Shown here one piece after another: positions 37,054 through 64,000 of a stretch of 64,000 nt of DNA (the first letter of the stretch is position 1; each line of letters starts with the position of its first letter). The notes beneath the pieces were generated by a model. It was not told the origin of the DNA. It was given only the letters and a program-made list of their open reading frames with translations, and searched no databases. This DNA comes from Eledone cirrhosa (lineage: Eukaryota), in NCBI GenBank assembly GCA_964016885.1, contig OZ024750.1, positions 6,262,001 through 6,326,000 on the forward strand. The letters run 5' to 3'. The translations under genes and the position numbers were made by a program.

Positions 37054-37084
<31 letters not shown>

Positions 37085-37198
37085 GCTATGTATTTTGGTC
37101 TCATTTGCCATAGGTCTCTTTGTTGATTCATTTCGATCTTCCATTCTACTATTAAGTCTTCACAAAATGTTCTTTCTCTTTTAAATTGTGTGTCTCTT

Positions 37199-40881: not shown

Positions 40882-40993
40882 ATGTGTATGGATTCGTAAA
40901 ACATGGTCAGTTTAGTGATGGGGGAGAGAGAGATAAATAAATAGATATGTTGGAGGAGAGGGAGAGAATGCTAGATGTGTGGATAGATAGATA

Positions 40994-41230
40994 AGTTTCT
41001 TTTATTTGCCACTAGGGCATCAAAAGTGGGACAAGTACAAAGGGGGGAGTTTACACAAAAAGGCGTCCTCAATAAGGAGGAGGCAATAACAAAATATAAA
41101 AATAAAATAAGATATAACAAAAATAAAATTTTTAACAAAATCCTCAATAGAGAGGAGGCGCCTTGGGGGTCGCACACACCCCCGAAAAAAGTGTGCAACC
41201 CTTTTCCTCAGGAGCACAGAGAGGGGGTGC
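40994..41230 (-). mobile_element. 5'-truncated copy (3' UTR only) of the Tx1-like LINE
   Basis: Near-identical to 41286-41524; flanked by (GATA)n on both sides. Confidence 0.95.
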
Positions 41231-41286
<56 letters not shown>

Positions 41287-41549
41287 GTTTCTTTTATTTG
41301 CCACTAGGGCATCAAAAGTGGGACAAGTACAAAGGGGGGAGTTTACACAAAAAGGCGTCCTCAATAAGGAGGAGGCAATAACAAAATATAAAAATAAAAT
41401 AAGATATAACAAAAAATAAAATTTTTAACAAAATCCTCAATGGAGAGGAGGCGCCTTGGGGGGTCGCACACACCCCCGAAAAAAGTGTGCAACCCTTTTC
41501 CTCAGGAGCACAGAGAGGGGGTGCTCCCTCGTTCCTTCCTCTTTTCCAC

Positions 41550-44500
41550 CTACAGGCTTATGTAAAGAGAAGGCCCATTCACACGGGCCATTCTCGCCAC
41601 TTTCACCCACCTTTCATAAAAACGACTGGGGTGCAGCACCTCTCTCTCCATCCTGATCCTTCTTCCGAAATGATATCGGAAGAAACGGACCAGTTGTTGG
41701 CCAGAGAGAAAGGCGCCCGACCTCAGTCCTTTCAGACGCGTCCACCATACAACCTCTTTCGCCATGGCTATTACGCACAGAAACACCGCCTCTGCTTCAT
41801 CTTTGAAGGGGGGAGGCGGCTTGATCATTACAATAGACTCGGTGGTCAACCGGATCGGTCCCACCCTTGACAGCAGTTGTTCGACATAGCCCCACAGATC
41901 GGCTACGCCCGAGCAGTGTACCAATGCGTGTGCAACGGTTTCCTCGTCGCACACGCATCTGGGACAGATCTTTTTGGCGGGGTCCCTACCCGGGCGCCCG
42001 TGTCTGTAGAGCCTTTCTCGAACGGGTAAAGCCCCTCGGTAGCACTGCCAGGCCAGGGACTTCTGGAAGTTGTCCATAGGTCCCGGGCTGAATGTCCTAC
42101 CGAACAGGCTGGCCAGTTCGTCCTCCTCCATGTCTAGGGCTTCTCCGAGGGCGTCGTCGCACCTGCTGCGTACCAGCCCTCTATAGAATGTTGCGGTGGA
42201 GTCTCCACTGATAACCGGATCCGCCTGCCAGAGGGCGGTGAGCGCCTGGGCACACTCAGTGTGCCAGGCGCCCAGTTTTCTCGGTCTCTGCTTGACCCAG
42301 GATTGCAGTTCGGTGAGTGAGACGAGTCTGGGAAAGGTTCGTCTCACAAACGGGGCCCACACCGGTTGTCCGGTGAGGAATACGTAGAGGTGCCGTAGCC
42401 TTAATGCGTGTTTACGCATCATTAGCCACGGCATCCCCAGCCCTCCTTTCGAAGGGTGTTGACAGCAGATGGATCTCCTCACCATAGGAGCCCGCCCCTT
42501 CCAAAGGAATTGGAAGAGCGCGCGCTCCATCTTGGTGAGGGTTTCCCTTGGGCAGGGCACTACGGTCAGGCGGTAGTAGATGACGGACGCTATATAAGTG
42601 TTCGCCACCTCCGCCCGACCTTTCAGGGATAGTTTGCAACTGGCCCACTTCTGGGTCAGTGCAAACACCCTGTTCGTAACCTCCGCCCAGTTTTTCTCCA
42701 CCTGGAGGTCCGGTCCGAACCAGACCCCGAGCAACTTCACCGGGCCCTCCGTCCAGCGTCCGACGACGCCATCGGAGGGCATCGGTCTGCCCCTCCACGT
42801 GCCGAGTTGCAAACCGATCGACTTGTCCCGGTTCAGCTTAGCCCCTGTGAACTTTTCGTACTCCTCCAGTAAGGTGCCGACCGCCTCGATTTCGGAGGCC
42901 GTCGACACCATTACTGTCACATCATCGGCGTAGGCTGACACCGCTTTCCGCAATCCCGGTTCCAAAGGGATGCCCTGCAACAACTCCAACTTCCGCAGTA
43001 GTGGCTCGAGAGTCAACACATACAGAAGGGAGGAGAGAGGGCACCCTTGTCGGATGGACCGCGCGATTTTGAACGGCTCCGAGAGGTAGCCGTTCACCTT
43101 GACCCTAGAGCAGATGCGGCTGCTGTGCATAGCAGTGATCCAGCCCCTGAAAACGGGTCCGAAGCCTGCCGCCGCTAGCACCGCATCCAGGTAACCATGG
43201 TCGACCCTATCGAACGCCTTAGATTGATCCAAGTTGATCAGAGCCCCACCAAAGCCGGGTTCGTTCCCAACCCTCTCTATGATGTATCGCATGAGGTGGA
43301 GGTTGTCATGGATGGACCTGGACGGGATAGCGCATGTCTGCGCATCTCCCACCAGGTTGCCCACGACAAGCGCCAACCTCTTTGCTAGCACCTTGGCCAA
43401 AATCTGTAACTCTGTATTTAGCAGAGTTATGGGCCTGAAGTTACTTATTTCGTCCCCCTTGTTCTCGTCCTTCCTCACTAGCGTGACTACGCCCTTGGTC
43501 ACAGTACAGGGAATTCTCCCGTTCTGTTGCCAGTTGCAGTAGACCGCCTCGAGGAGATCGGGGAACAAGTCCGGCATAGCTAGATATAATTCGTAAGGAA
43601 GACCATCGAGACCCGGGGATTTGCGTTTGCCGCATTGGCCCAGCACGTCCTCTATCTCAGCGGCCGAAATCGGCTCCTCGCAAGACTTCGCTTCCCTGTC
43701 CGAGAGGCGCGGCAGGCCGTCGAGGTATGGACCGAAGTCCACGTTTCCAACCGGCTCCCCGCCCCTCCCGAACAGTCGGGCAAAGTGCCTTTGAAAGGCC
43801 TCACACATCTGCTTAGGCTCAAGAATCGCCCGTCCATCCAGGTCTCGCAAAGACCGGATGGTGGATTTAGTTCCACTGTTGGCCTCTGTCACGCGGGCCC
43901 AGCTAACAGCTTTGGCCCCCTCGTTTCCTAGAGCACGTATTTTACTTCGGACAACGCAGCCTTCGTGCTTCGCGTCGAAAAACTGGCTCAAAGCCGTTCT
44001 CGACGCTAGCACTCTGGCCACGTCGCCGCTTCTAATTGCCTCTTCTACTCTATCTATTAGCTCCCTTTCCTTCCTATTCCTATCCGCAGCTAGAACCTTA
44101 CTAAATTCAATCGAGACTACTCTAATCTCTCTCTTTAGAGATACCCACCACCTGCTGTTGACGATCGCTCCAGTCAACCGTTCCTTAACTAACGTACTAA
44201 TCCGATTCCTGTAGGCTCTACTTGCCGGCAAGGACAAGTTGAGCTTCCAGTAACCGGGGCCCTGTCTATGCGTTCTATCAAGGTTGACCATGCAGGTCAC
44301 CAACTTGTGGTCTGAATAGCCAACCATGAGCATTTCTGGACAACTTAAAAAGTCCCTGTCCTTATTTCTAACTAAAAATCTATCTAGGTACGATCTAGAT
44401 GATCCGCTGCGATTTGACCAAGACCAGGTTGGCACCGTCGGAAAATCTAGTCGAAATCTATCGGCCAGGTCAAATCGGCCGAGTAACCCCTTGAGGCTGT

Positions 44501-44987
44501 TGCACCCCTCTCTATCGGGACATGCCCCTGCATAGTCCCAACGTGCATCCAGGATACCATTCCAATCCCCCACTAAAAGCAGGGAACGGGACGTCCCTAG
44601 AAAAGACTCCAGACGCTGGAAAAAGTCGGGCCGCTCTGTCCCAAAAGGGGCATATGCGGCTATCAGCCTAAAGGCTCTACCTTCACCACTGCCAAGGTCC
44701 AGCACCACCAGTCGACCCCCTGGGTCCAAGTGAACTATCTGTGTTGCAAGGCCCATATGTTTTTGCAGCAGAACGACAACCCCACCCCCACCTCCGGGCT
44801 GACAGAGAGATGCGTGCATCTCAAAGTCGTCAAAGGTGGGGGCTAGCTGTCGCATGCTGCTGATCCGGGCCTCGCAGATAACCATCACATTTATAGATTG
44901 TGACCTGAGGTCATTTAGAAGCATTGCTTGCTTCCAAGACGAGCCCAGGCCACGCGCATTTAGACACCCTACTCTTAGCACAGCCAT
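41550..44987 (-). CDS. LINE ORF2: APE endonuclease, reverse transcriptase and C-terminal CCHC finger (1145 aa from ATG 44987)
   Basis: APE motifs LNARG, YAP, GDWN, LDRF, SDH; GPGYWKLN linker; RT motifs SPGLDG, FRPITLLN, LDQSKAFDRVDH, RQGCPLS, YADD; CPRC...ETVAHALVHC. Confidence 0.97.
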   Translation of the reverse strand: MAVLRVGCLNARGLGSSWKQAMLLNDLRSQSINVMVICEARISSMRQLAPTFDDFEMHASLCQPGGGGGVVVLLQKHMGLATQIVHLDPGGRLVVLDLGSGEGRAFRLIAAYAPFGTERPDFFQRLESFLGTSRSLLLVGDWNGILDARWDYAGACPDREGCNSLKGLLGRFDLADRFRLDFPTVPTWSWSNRSGSSRSYLDRFLVRNKDRDFLSCPEMLMVGYSDHKLVTCMVNLDRTHRQGPGYWKLNLSLPASRAYRNRISTLVKERLTGAIVNSRWWVSLKREIRVVSIEFSKVLAADRNRKERELIDRVEEAIRSGDVARVLASRTALSQFFDAKHEGCVVRSKIRALGNEGAKAVSWARVTEANSGTKSTIRSLRDLDGRAILEPKQMCEAFQRHFARLFGRGGEPVGNVDFGPYLDGLPRLSDREAKSCEEPISAAEIEDVLGQCGKRKSPGLDGLPYELYLAMPDLFPDLLEAVYCNWQQNGRIPCTVTKGVVTLVRKDENKGDEISNFRPITLLNTELQILAKVLAKRLALVVGNLVGDAQTCAIPSRSIHDNLHLMRYIIERVGNEPGFGGALINLDQSKAFDRVDHGYLDAVLAAAGFGPVFRGWITAMHSSRICSRVKVNGYLSEPFKIARSIRQGCPLSSLLYVLTLEPLLRKLELLQGIPLEPGLRKAVSAYADDVTVMVSTASEIEAVGTLLEEYEKFTGAKLNRDKSIGLQLGTWRGRPMPSDGVVGRWTEGPVKLLGVWFGPDLQVEKNWAEVTNRVFALTQKWASCKLSLKGRAEVANTYIASVIYYRLTVVPCPRETLTKMERALFQFLWKGRAPMVRRSICCQHPSKGGLGMPWLMMRKHALRLRHLYVFLTGQPVWAPFVRRTFPRLVSLTELQSWVKQRPRKLGAWHTECAQALTALWQADPVISGDSTATFYRGLVRSRCDDALGEALDMEEDELASLFGRTFSPGPMDNFQKSLAWQCYRGALPVRERLYRHGRPGRDPAKKICPRCVCDEETVAHALVHCSGVADLWGYVEQLLSRVGPIRLTTESIVMIKPPPPFKDEAEAVFLCVIAMAKEVVWWTRLKGLRSGAFLSGQQLVRFFRYHFGRRIRMEREVLHPSRFYERWVKVARMARVNGPSLYISL

Positions 44988-45011
44988 GTTGGTGGTAAAG
45001 AGAAAAGGCAC

Positions 45012-46654
45012 TTACCTCTCTGCGTCCCGGGAAACGGGCCGCTCAATTTCCATGCTGGTTGGGGATGGGTTGTTGGGTGGGGTTGTGGTTTGTGGAAGTG
45101 AAGGGGCATCGGTGTGTTGTGGGGTTGGGGTGTTTGTCGTTGAGTGGGTGTCTGGGTGAGGTGGGGGGGTGAAATTTTTTAGGAGGACGCGGTTGATTGG
45201 TTTGGCGCAGGGGGGGCCCACGTCCTCCGTGAAATTTATTTTCAGTGTTTTGTACAAGTGCATTGGGACTTTTATCATTTTCAAATGAGGTAGTCCCACA
45301 GCAGTTATAAAGTTTGGCCCTTCGGTTTGGACCGAAGGGTTTGCTGAAATTGTTTTCCGTAATTCTTTGTTGTCTGTGTTCATGTATGTGTATTGTAATG
45401 TCTTTTTTTGTGTAGCAGTTAGTGTTGTGTGACAGGGAGGGGTGGTTTGTGTGTAGTTTGTGTTCTCTTGGGGGGGATTAAAGTTAACATGTGTGTCTGT
45501 GGTGCGTCTCCTCTTCTTTCTTTTTACTTGTTGGAAGGGATCTTTTTCGTCTTGCGACGAAAGAGGTTCGTCTTCCTTGTTGGGTGGGAGGGGTATGTTT
45601 TCTGGTAGTGTTTGCGGTGTGCGTGTTTTTGTATTTGTTTTGGGTGGGGAGGGATTGGGTGGGACAGTATTCTGTGTTATTTTTTCACGTGTTTGTTGTT
45701 GTTGTTGTTGTGGTGGTGGTGGTGGGGTTGTTGGTTTTTGTTGTTGTTGTGGTTGTTTTTGTTGTTGTAGTTGGGGTGGTGTTGGTGTTGGTAGCAGTGT
45801 TTTTTTCTGTGTGAGCTGGGGACAGGCAGCCCTCAGGTGACCTCTATTGCCACAGAGGTAACAGGAGGGACGCCTACCCTCCACAATAATGTTGAGGTGG
45901 GTACGGTCATCCAGCATGACGCGCTCAGGGATTTGGGCGATGCGTTCTGGCCTTATTTGGGTCAGAACTTCGATGCTCGTTCCACTGAACGCGTCGCCGG
46001 ATGCCTTCCCTATTGAGATGAGGTTGTCCTCGTCTAAATTGAGGAAACCGGTTAGTAACCACCAGTAGTTTATGTTTGGGGTGATGGTGGTTATCCATAT
46101 CCTCTGGGTTTTTTTACCCATGTAGGTAGGGAAGAAGGTGTAGTGTGTGGACCGAATTGGCGACACAGAGTATTTTTTTGCCGCCAATTCGTCTTTCATC
46201 AATATGGATAAACTCCCATAGAGTTTATCCTTTTGTATGAAAGTGATGTCTCTCATCGCGTCTTTCAAGACTAACTGAGTTTCCGCTTGAGATGGTTGCG
46301 CTGGTTTCTTTGTTTTATTTAAAATTGTTCGGAATACGACAGTTCGTAATTCCGTCTGTCTTTTTAGCTCCGGAGGTGAATGTATAGAAAACGATCCGTT
46401 TTCGCCAAAAGACACATATTTCTTGGCTTTTTCCAGCATTTCTTTTGCTTTTGAAATATCTTCCAGCATATAAGCGACTGATAATTTAGCCGTTTGTGCA
46501 AAAGATATTTTGTTTTCGTTTTGGATATTAGTATTGTTTTGTTTCTCGTCGTTTGAGTTGTTTTCATCTTTGTTGTTGTTGTTGTCTTTCTCGTTTCGTG
46601 TGTGGATACTTGTGACGTTTGTGTTGTTGTTGTTTTTGTTGTCTTTATTGTTGC

Positions 46655-46685
<31 letters not shown>

Positions 46686-46859
46686 TTCAAATTCTTGTGT
46701 AGTTGTGGCTACATCTAGTGGTCGGTCAACAGGTGAAGACAATTCTTCCTCTCTCTGACCTCTGCCTTTGGCATCTGCTGCTGTGACAGTGGCAGGGGGA
46801 AGCTGTGAGTATGACTTCCCCTTTCCTTCTTTGATTGATGGTGAAGATGATTCAGCCAT
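45012..46859 (-). CDS. LINE ORF1 nucleic-acid-binding protein with gag-type zinc knuckle (615 aa from ATG 46859)
   Basis: CYLCGNRGHLRAAC (CX2CX4HX4C); basic VKRKKRRR patch; Asn-rich and Pro/Gln-rich tracts; lies directly upstream of ORF2. Confidence 0.92.
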
Positions 46860-47076
46860 TTTTCTCAAAATAGGGTTTTTCGAAGTTTTTCGAAAGATAA
46901 AATGTTCACAATACTATTTCGCCCAAAGGCGCAGAATATTTTGAGAGACCGACCAGATCAAAATTTGACCTGGCAGTCCCTCTACAAAATGATACAAAAA
47001 TGAAAGTTTACAGTTTACAATTTCCGTATGAATTTAAACAAAAACTTACCGAGCGAGCTCAGCACATGTGTCCATC

Positions 47077-47112
<36 letters not shown>

Positions 47113-47113
<1 letters not shown>

Positions 47114-47437
47114 GTTTCTTTTATTTGCCACTAGGGCATCAAAAGTGGGACAAGTACAAAGGGGGGAGTTTACACAAAAAGGCGTCCTCAATAAGGAGGA
47201 GGCAATAACAAAATATAAAAATAAAATAAGATATAACAAAAAATAAAATTTTTAACAAAATCCTCAATAGAGAGGAGGCGCCTTGGGGGGTCGCACACAC
47301 CCCCGAAAAAAGTGTGCAACCCTTTTCCTCAGGAGCACAGAGAAGGGGTGCTCCCTCGTTCCTTCCTCTTTTCCACCTACAGGCTTATGTAAAGAGAAGG
47401 CCCATTCACACGGGCCATTCTCGCCACTTTCACCCAC
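47113..47437 (-). mobile_element. 5'-truncated copy of the Tx1-like LINE (end of ORF2 plus 3' UTR)
   Basis: Near-identical to 41286-41610; flanked by (GATA)n. Confidence 0.95.
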
Positions 47438-47471
<34 letters not shown>

Positions 47472-47539: not shown

Positions 47540-47855
47540 ACTATATAAATTTCATCAACCTTTTCTATTCAAACGAAGTAATATTTTTGAGCAAGGCTAT
47601 CTATAAATAAACTACTATACCACATATCATACAGTATATACATTTCAACATCCTTTTCTATGAGAACGAAGTAATATGTTTGAGCAAGGCTATCCATATA
47701 TATGCTACTACACCAGACATCATACAGTATATAAATTTCAACATCGTTTTATATCAAAAGGAAGTAATGCTTTTGAGCAAGGCTTCCATATATAAGCTAC
47801 TATACCACATCGTTTTCCATTTGAAGGCAGTAATATTTTGAGCAAGTCTATATAT
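47540..47855. repeat. Diverged tandem repeat, ~93-bp unit, a little over three copies
   Basis: GAAGTAAT...TTTGAGCAAGGCT recurs near 47575, 47668, 47761 and, shortened, near 47828. Confidence 0.85.
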
Positions 47856-63019: not shown

Positions 63020-63570
63020 GCTGGATGGTTGGGTTGGTTAGCTGGTTGGGTGTTTAGTTAGTCAGTTGGCTGGTTGGTTGGGTAGTTGGGTGTTTAGTTA
63101 GTCAGTTGGCTGGTTGGTTGGGTAGTTGGTTGGGTGTTTAGTTAGTCAGTTGGCTGGTTGGTTGGGTAGTTGGTTGGGTGTTTAGTTAGTCAGTTGGATG
63201 GTTGGGTTGGTTAGCTGGTTGGGTGTTTAGTTAGTCAGTTGGCTGGTTGGTTGGGTAGTTGGTTGGGTGTTTAGTTAGTCAGTTGGCTGGTTGGTTGGGT
63301 AGTTGGTTGGGTGTTTAGTTAGTCAGTTGGCTGGTTGGTTGGGTAGTTGGTTGGGTGTTTAGTTAGTCAGTTGGCTGGTTGGTTGGGTAGTTGGTTGGGT
63401 GTTTAGTTAGTCAGTTGGCTGGTTGGTTGGGTAGTTGGTTGGGTGTTTAGTTAGTCAGTTGGCTGGTTGGTTGGGTAGTTGGTTGGGTGTTTAGTTAGTC
63501 AGTTGGCTGGTTGGTTGGGTAGTTGGTTCGTTGGTTAGCTGGCTGGCTGGGTAGTTATCTGGTTGGTTGG
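63020..63570. repeat. ~44-bp GT-rich minisatellite
   Basis: GGGTGTTTAGTTAGTCAGTTGGCTGGTTGGTTGGGTAGTTGGTT repeated about 11 times with some shorter units. Confidence 0.95.
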
Positions 63571-63577
63571 TGGTTAA

Positions 63578-63820
63578 AATTAAAAAAGGCTGCTCAAATA
63601 TTGATGAAATTCTCAGACAATTAAAAAAGGCTGCTCAAATATTGATGAAATTCTCAGACAATTAAAAAAGGCTGCTCAAATATTGATGAAATCCTCAGAC
63701 AATTAAAAAAGGCTGCTCAAATATTGATGAAATCCTCAGACAATTAAAAAAGGCTGCTCAAATATTGATGAAATCCTCAGACAATTAAAAAAAGGCTGCT
63801 CAAATACTGAGGTAATCCTC
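63578..63820. repeat. 41-bp tandem repeat, about 5.5 copies
   Basis: AATTAAAAAAGGCTGCTCAAATATTGATGAAATYCTCAGAC with no spacers. Confidence 0.95.
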
Positions 63821-64000
63821 ATAGAGAATTGAACGAGTACAGCTGATACTTCTTCTATCCACGAAATCATTGTATATGAAAGCCAAGTGTTTAAGTCTAA
63901 TATATAGTATTGGTTAAATATATCTAGATATATATTGTAGTAACGTATAGCATTGGAACAAAACACTGTTAACGCACCAGTAATTTATGAAATGTTTCTT

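Follow-up and report, generated by a model that had tools for sequence, protein, structure and literature searches.

Members of the Tx1 clade of long interspersed nuclear elements (LINEs) insert into (TC)n, (TTC)n, (TTCC)n and (TTTC)n repeats, U2, U5, 5S, satellites and transposons, and a family counts as microsatellite-specific when one repeat type occupies >20% of its flanks (PMC4494074; here and below, papers are cited by accession as far as their available text goes). Microsatellite targeting in this clade is exemplified by Kibi in (TC)n and Koshi in (TTC)n of teleosts and by crocodilian families in (TTCC)n/(TTTC)n (PMC4494074, PMC3812793). The listed LINE targets comprise ACAY, AC, TC, TTC and TAA (PMC3812793), to which (TG)n has been added (PMC4640811). 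SART1/TRAS1 (telomeric repeats), Waldo/Mino ((AC)n, ACAY), Dong ((TAA)n) and Togen ((TG)n) are also repeat-specific, with their orientation set by the repeat strand (targets as listed in PMC3812793 and PMC4640811). These elements belong to other clades. Here we describe an APE-type LINE lacking long terminal repeats (a non-LTR element) in a 64,000-nt stretch of the Eledone cirrhosa genome (assembly GCA_964016885.1, contig OZ024750.1, forward-strand positions 6,262,001 to 6,326,000; hereafter the window), in which three copies stand head to tail among GATA repeats. No TATC/GATA-targeting LINE was found in the literature searched, the scope of which excluded Repbase, Dfam, Kojima and Fujiwara 2004 and the 2025 survey of site-specific retrotransposons, each of which might contain one; TATC and GATA are absent from the main text of PMC4494074, and the available text of PMC3706591 and PMC5753468 holds nothing on a GATA/TATC target. 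In a repeat library of Octopus vulgaris, L1-Tx1 families with recent activity number 13 and account for 421 insertions (Table 1 of PMC13282606). In the available text of that paper and of PMC8967140, L1-Tx1 families of octopods are recorded without target analysis, the word "target" being absent from the main text of PMC13282606; relatives of the group described here may be among the Octopus vulgaris families.

The window very probably records three insertions, likely independent of one another, of an intact two-ORF LINE with APE and reverse transcriptase (RT) domains at TAT(C/A)T, with the nick predicted at GATA|G or within 2 nt of it and reverse transcription likely starting where the RNA joins its poly(A). 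Across the 3.0-Gb genome, a match to the last 24 nt ahead of the variable final base identifies 1,112 exact 3′ ends, which are followed by WTATMT in 1,053 cases and by WTATCT in 907; 146 stand at TATAT and 59 at other sequence. For closer analysis, the first 100 matches on contig C1 were taken by position, blind to their flanks, with 8 kb around each; two of these copies, L091 and L092, represent one insertion event duplicated 14 kb apart. In this sample, the base after AAAGAAAC is T in 39 copies (mostly of the youngest subfamily), A in 59 and C in 2, and this variable base is followed by TATCT in 76 copies and by TATAT in 20, with TAT as the invariant part of the target (98-99% per position). 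In the background of the window, TATAT outnumbers TATCT ~18-fold, so that TATCT appears to be favoured ~100-fold per site, a rough figure resting on that background only. The specificity for (TATC)n proposed in the preliminary description therefore holds as a preference, but the true motif is the short TAT(C/A)T, which leaks to (TA)n and to some single non-repeated sites. Thus, the preference is strong for a short motif in repeat context and is not an absolute specificity. Minisatellite units in which a TAT(A/C)T-like site occurs have also received insertions, namely L005, L071, L091/L092 and L131.

Measured by the >20% rule, the element is microsatellite-specific, with one repeat type in 64 of 100 5′ flanks and at 907 of 1,112 3′ junctions, and TAT(C/A)T differs from the (TC)n, (TTC)n, (TTCC)n and (TTTC)n targets of Kibi/Koshi. 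Like Kibi/Koshi and the crocodilian Tx1 families, it is an APE-type non-LTR element preferring a microsatellite; it differs from Kibi/Koshi in targeting (TATC)n with leakage to (TA)n and in its invertebrate host, a distinction drawn from target descriptions and not from sequences. Unlike Keno (U2) and Mutsu (5S), it resides in a dispersed microsatellite and not in U2 or 5S genes. The element works like Kibi/Koshi with a new target and, by target, is a member of neither Kibi/Koshi, Keno nor Mutsu. GATA targeting is a variant of a known strategy and not a new kind of system, and it adds a tetranucleotide, (GATA)n, to the short list of targets of sequence-specific APE retrotransposons.

The 5′ flanks bear on whether the repeat is a target or a tail. 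At least two TATC units are present within 20 nt at the 5′ side in 61 of the 100 sampled copies, or 64 once ends were refined, against a background of 0.2-0.4%; (TA)≥4 is found there in 11-12 copies, and 28 of 30 full-length 5′ ends carry the repeat. Eight hand-picked non-periodic target-site duplications of 10, 12, 12, 16, 17, 17, 17 and 20 bp are identical on both sides and all start with TAT, none has extra TATC units at the 3′ side, and in four of the eight the base ahead of the duplication differs from the last base of the element. We therefore regard the repeat as target and not as tail, since 64 copies carry it 5′ too and non-repetitive targets are duplicated without added TATC. A tail copied from the element RNA, like that of LINEs whose 3′ ends are microsatellites, combined with otherwise loose insertion, would explain the T directly after the element end in 98 of 100 copies, the TATCT in 76 and the eight copies with the array at the 3′ side only. 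This highly improbable model is rejected on the repeats at the 5′ side, the exact duplications with zero added units at non-repetitive sites, the 19 loci described below at which poly(A) directly follows the element end, and the TATAT of 20 copies, which matches their (TA)n surroundings. Had the repeat been a tail, (TATC)n would be expected at the 3′ end only, with random 5′ flanks; instead, the repeat borders the majority of copies at both ends, or else a genuine target-site duplication is present. The proposed regeneration of the target is likewise real as a 10-20 bp duplication, yet no new units are added from the RNA.

Rare copies with poly(A) point to the end of the RNA. A-runs directly after the group 3′ end account for 25 matches, corresponding to 19 loci, and are carried by only 3 of the 1,112 exact copies. 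The runs are 7-34 nt long and begin after GAAA plus TAT (11), C (4), T (2), TTT (1) or CAT (1); the usual target resumes after the run at 14 of the 19 loci, often as (A)n-TA-TATC, and five poly(A) copies are at non-TAT sites. For A-runs 3-28 nt downstream of the 3′ end, no perfect case of (TATC)n followed by poly(A) was seen among the first 100 of 317 matches. Because poly(A) starts within ~3 nt of the end in these 19 rare copies, the mRNA is likely polyadenylated there, the tail being normally skipped. SART1, by comparison, joins poly(A) to its target (PMC7265360). Such copies provide genomic evidence on tail-less insertion by an element with polyadenylated RNA.

In the proposed mechanism, the endonuclease would cut the GATA strand at GATA|G or no more than 2 nt from it, the primer end (..ATA-3′) would pair over 1-3 nt with the last bases of the RNA (U/UA), and reverse transcription would normally start where the RNA joins its poly(A) and not within that tail. 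If the nascent cDNA occasionally slipped into poly(A), the (A)n-TA-TATC junctions would result. Each insertion would leave TATC on both sides, with orientation set by the repeat strand, and reuse of an array would therefore give head-to-tail stacks with no special array mechanism.

An unlikely, if not negligible, alternative is that targeting depends mainly on RNA-primer annealing or on nicks already present in unstable microsatellites, the endonuclease itself having weak specificity and only those nicks that expose ..ATA-3′ being productive. Such a mode fits the restriction of the invariant part to TAT, as a 2-3 nt pairing would select, the acceptance of (TA)n, an endonuclease hairpin loop equal in length to that of human L1 (9 residues between anchors), and the case of SART1, in which target-RNA annealing guides initiation (PMC7265360). 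However, positions +5 to +15 are strongly TATC-periodic, beyond the 0-2 nt of target sequence present in the RNA according to the poly(A) copies, and TATCT is preferred over the far commoner TATAT. Moreover, the five poly(A) copies at non-TAT sites hint at a link, though not an identity, between start mode and target, and the Tx1L endonuclease alone is sequence-specific (PMC1950540).

Several points nevertheless weigh against targeting of the repeat by the endonuclease as proposed here. At the 5′ side, 24 of the 100 sampled copies have no TATC or TA repeat, seven of the eight copies with a 3′-only array lack a duplication, and when perfect units are counted strictly, two or more TATC are present at both ends in 54 copies and at neither end in 29. 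Duplications inside perfect repeats are unmeasurable, the eight clear ones were chosen by hand, and no empty allele or RNA was observed. Two loci among the first 100 of the 317 matches have an imperfect TATC-like stretch before the A-run and could be read-through RNAs. Finally, the structure model gives no reliable picture of the endonuclease hairpin loop (residues 183-201; predicted local distance difference test, pLDDT, <50), and specificity is thus not tied directly to the endonuclease.

In the window, the three copies lie on the minus strand, their 3′ ends thus at the lower coordinates (Table 1). As the preliminary description stated, they share one orientation with only (GATA)n between and around them (runs of 3, 13.8, 9 and 8.5 units), and all end as AATAAAAGAAACT|TATC without poly(A). 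Chance is excluded as the source of these flanks, as just 13 of 5,698 background 20-mers of the window contain two TATC units. The reported A/G differences between copies and the A at 47344 are both present in the sequence. The G at 41442 occurs in none of 88 scorable other copies and is thus specific to the long one, and the A at 47344 is a polymorphism found in 49 of 85 other copies. The short copies therefore do not represent parts of the long copy that were assembled a second time; as had been claimed, the diagnostic bases fit three separate insertions, and the array likely arose from three independent events. Local tandem duplication or an assembly artefact would account for the ~99% identity of the copies and for the one base missing from copy 1 in each of two homopolymer runs, which is typical of long-read error, and one adjacent pair in another array is indeed 99.95% identical. 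Yet the three different 5′ ends, the incompatible diagnostic bases and the common genome-wide stacks of different families make this origin highly improbable. The diagnostic bases speak against an artefact in particular, although no read spanning the array was found, and no piece in the four contig sets compared with it spans it.

Table 1. The LINE array in the window and the parts of its long copy (window coordinates).
Feature	Position	Strand	Remarks
3′ flank of copy 1, (GATA)3	40982..40993	.	Size of about one target-site duplication
Copy 1, 237 bp	40994..41230	-	5′-truncated, 3′ untranslated region (UTR) only
Spacer between copies 1 and 2, (ATAG)13.8	41231..41285	.	
Copy 2, 5,791 bp	41286..47076	-	Near full length, without ~3 nt of the usual TAC head
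3′ UTR of copy 2, 264 nt	41286..41549	-	AATAAA at 41298-41293 (7 nt ahead of element end)
Open reading frame (ORF) 2, 1,145 aa	41550..44987	-	APE endonuclease, RT (YADD), zf-RVT
ORF1, 615 aa	45012..46859	-	One CCHC knuckle, N/Q/P-rich linkers
5′ UTR of copy 2, 217 nt	46860..47076	-	
Spacer between copies 2 and 3, (GATA)9	47077..47112	.	
Copy 3, 325 bp	47113..47437	-	5′-truncated; alternative allele at 47344
5′ flank of copy 3, (ATAG)8.5	47438..47471	.	

The 5′ junctions call for a different description from the one first given. The long copy does not begin at CGAT|G; its junction is TATC|GATGG, in which GATGG is element sequence, and TAC|GATGG stands at 25 of 30 full-length 5′ ends of other copies. 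Nor is the 5′ register fixed: in the sample of 100, the 45 truncated copies with a TATC run at the junction end in TATC (9), ATCT (13), TCTA (11) or CTAT (12). Such a free register is as predicted from the variable duplication length, and it makes the occurrence of CTAT|G at two junctions of the window coincidental; the register is fixed at the 3′ end only. In the 10 nt upstream of GATGG (L313-L342), a variable pyrimidine-rich stretch of 3-7 nt separates the TATC run from the TAC start of full-length copies, representing either read-in from the source locus or untemplated bases. In addition, a (TATC)7-10 run on the opposite strand at window positions 37055-37093, 4 kb from the array, has no element end adjoining and is an unoccupied potential target.

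Array building, also claimed from the window, occurs genome-wide in the form of mixed-family head-to-tail arrays. The end motif is shared by related families: TATC arrays of at least 5 units that begin immediately behind AATAAA(A)GAAA plus 1-3 nt number 5,421, and of 30 such loci checked, 28 show homology to the element on their upstream side. Starts of such arrays not preceded by C number 17,144 in the genome. At this scale the LINE group shapes the GATA microsatellites of its host, with a bearing on microsatellite marker behaviour: by hand count, 24 of the first 100 long TATC arrays coincide with a group 3′ end. A same-orientation neighbour lies within 250 nt of 55 of the 100 sampled copies (33 upstream, 43 downstream), and an opposite one of only 1. 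At C1:63.9 Mb, five full-length units make up an array of 30 kb, with adjacent units 77-81% identical except for the 99.95% pair. Ten units from three arrays, together with the window copy, resolve into at least five families at 75-89% identity; the target preference, first attributed to a single family, is thus real but common to a group. Mixed-family arrays cannot be products of tandem duplication, and their head-to-tail order reflects the targeting of one repeat strand and the duplication of the repeat by each insertion. An extra preference for occupied arrays is not needed, because the proportion with an upstream neighbour (33/100) is close to that of long arrays starting at a group 3′ end (24/100); with a downstream neighbour in 43 of 100 copies, modest extra clustering is not excluded. 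On balance, we lean slightly towards a broader reading, in which these families form a deep, undescribed Tx1-like lineage whose APE nickase would read GATA|G and prime precisely at the RNA poly(A) junction, at least five families sharing the target, starting about a quarter of long GATA arrays and making SART-like arrays of up to 30 kb. A separate repeat family (L343-L371; e.g., G000:C1:71266688 and 71267910; C1:57995939 and 57999135) consists of rearranged, 71-84% identical pieces of the 3′ region of the LINE group and a conserved 190-460 bp part, which is 87-98% identical between loci and often occurs as inverted pairs 0.4-3 kb apart; it is possibly a non-autonomous derivative of the group.

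The element has the organization of an APE-type non-LTR retrotransposon of the L1 group, with an ORF1 and an ORF2 that carries an APE endonuclease, an RT and a C-terminal zinc motif, and its 5′-truncated copies have target-site duplications of 10-20 bp. The endonuclease catalytic motifs N, E, Y, GDWN, YLDR and SDH are intact when aligned to the human L1 endonuclease (L1-EN), and the 3′ UTR of copy 2 is weakly structured (z -2.3). Human LINE-1 ORF2p is matched by both sequence (phmmer E 5e-48) and structure (Foldseek E 3.6e-42), although the AlphaFold model of ORF2, with a mean pLDDT of 63, confirms the L1 ORF2p fold only. Domain order, fold and 10-20 bp duplications are common to the two elements. 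L1 nicks at TTTT/A and primes on poly(A). In contrast, the element described here uses TAT(C/A)T, normally omits poly(A) and has a CCHC knuckle in ORF1. Comparison with L1-EN, equal in loop length and different in target, would test what sets APE specificity. Copy L114 (G000:C1:147124245-147132244) has an internal deletion through which ORF1 and ORF2 are joined in a single frame of 1,514 aa.

The Tx1-like affiliation suggested for the element is likely, with only moderate support. A CCHC knuckle in ORF1, rather than a vertebrate-L1-type ORF1, is a feature of the Tx1 clade. The knuckle is detected weakly here (Pfam zf-CCHC E 0.0034, under the curated cut-off), and ORF1 has CCHC and ZCCHC3-like clusters as atlas neighbours at 0.90-0.92, a weak test. 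The closest named homologue, from Argonauta hians, is 67% identical; metagenome proteins at 40-54% identity form one lineage with the element (100/100), and the nearest fish relatives found are 28-31% identical over the endonuclease and RT and are not its sister. A metagenome scan for relatives yielded distant ones only, with 80 of 530 kept, and no TATC run was present within 1.5 kb after ORF2 in these 80. Rfam searches on 20 of the 80 place three insertions in U2 small nuclear RNA (snRNA; L240, L243, L247) and two in 5S rRNA (L248, L252), which we label Keno-like and Mutsu-like, respectively, from their targets alone. Outside the lineage of the element itself, these relatives score among the highest, with 317-385 bits compared with 112-151 bits for plant and Dictyostelium elements. 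A similar AATAAAAGAC stands at the end of the 5S-flanked ones, but U2- and 5S-flanked relatives carry an A-run at the 3′ junction, so rare in the element described here. A FastTree analysis of 101 rows, left after near-duplicates were removed from 270, groups the element with the U2-flanked, 5S-flanked and fish elements at 0.79, and the same grouping receives a Shimodaira-Hasegawa-like approximate likelihood ratio (SH-aLRT) of 95 in a quick tree and 85/96 with 17 rows; in the 17-row set, union with plant-type L1 is rejected (approximately unbiased test, p-AU 0.0085). The grouping points to Tx1, but the backbone stays unresolved in a careful 36-row tree, in which the element clade is separate from the U2-/5S-flanked elements. 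All trees were built without any named Tx1 or animal L1 sequence; no animal L1 reference appeared among four distant hits tested against PDB, and protein cluster look-ups returned no Tx1 name. Derivation of TATC recognition from the U2 site (..GTATCTG.. after the A-run in L240 and L247) was considered and found no support from the trees. The metagenomic APE LINEs adjoin U2 snRNA at L240:5806, L243:4675 and L247:5815 and 5S rRNA at L248:5495 and L252:5892. At L264:9202, an APE LINE adjoins a U1 snRNA match, which may be an unlisted target, and U2-like Rfam matches also occur upstream of ORF2, inside or beside Keno-like elements (L233:701-817, L235:554-716, L240:782-896).

The family is young. 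Exact 5′ ends of the youngest subfamily number 202. In the sample, 86 of 100 copies do not align to the 5′ end of the window copy (median length 2,186 bp); of the 14 full-length copies, five retain both ORFs nearly complete, a sixth retains both with ORF1 shortened, and the two closest are 99.76-99.85% identical to the window copy. The preliminary description took the element to be probably still active: youth and intact ORFs are consistent with this, and present activity appears likely. Intact copies of such youth are suited to biochemistry and bear on the reports of young L1-Tx1 families in octopods.

No further long complex ORF besides those of the LINE is present in the window. Minisatellites lie at 864-1594, 47542-47810, 63022-63528 and 63578-63821, with periods of 60/63, 93, 44 and 41 bp, respectively, the first containing open but low-complexity frames.

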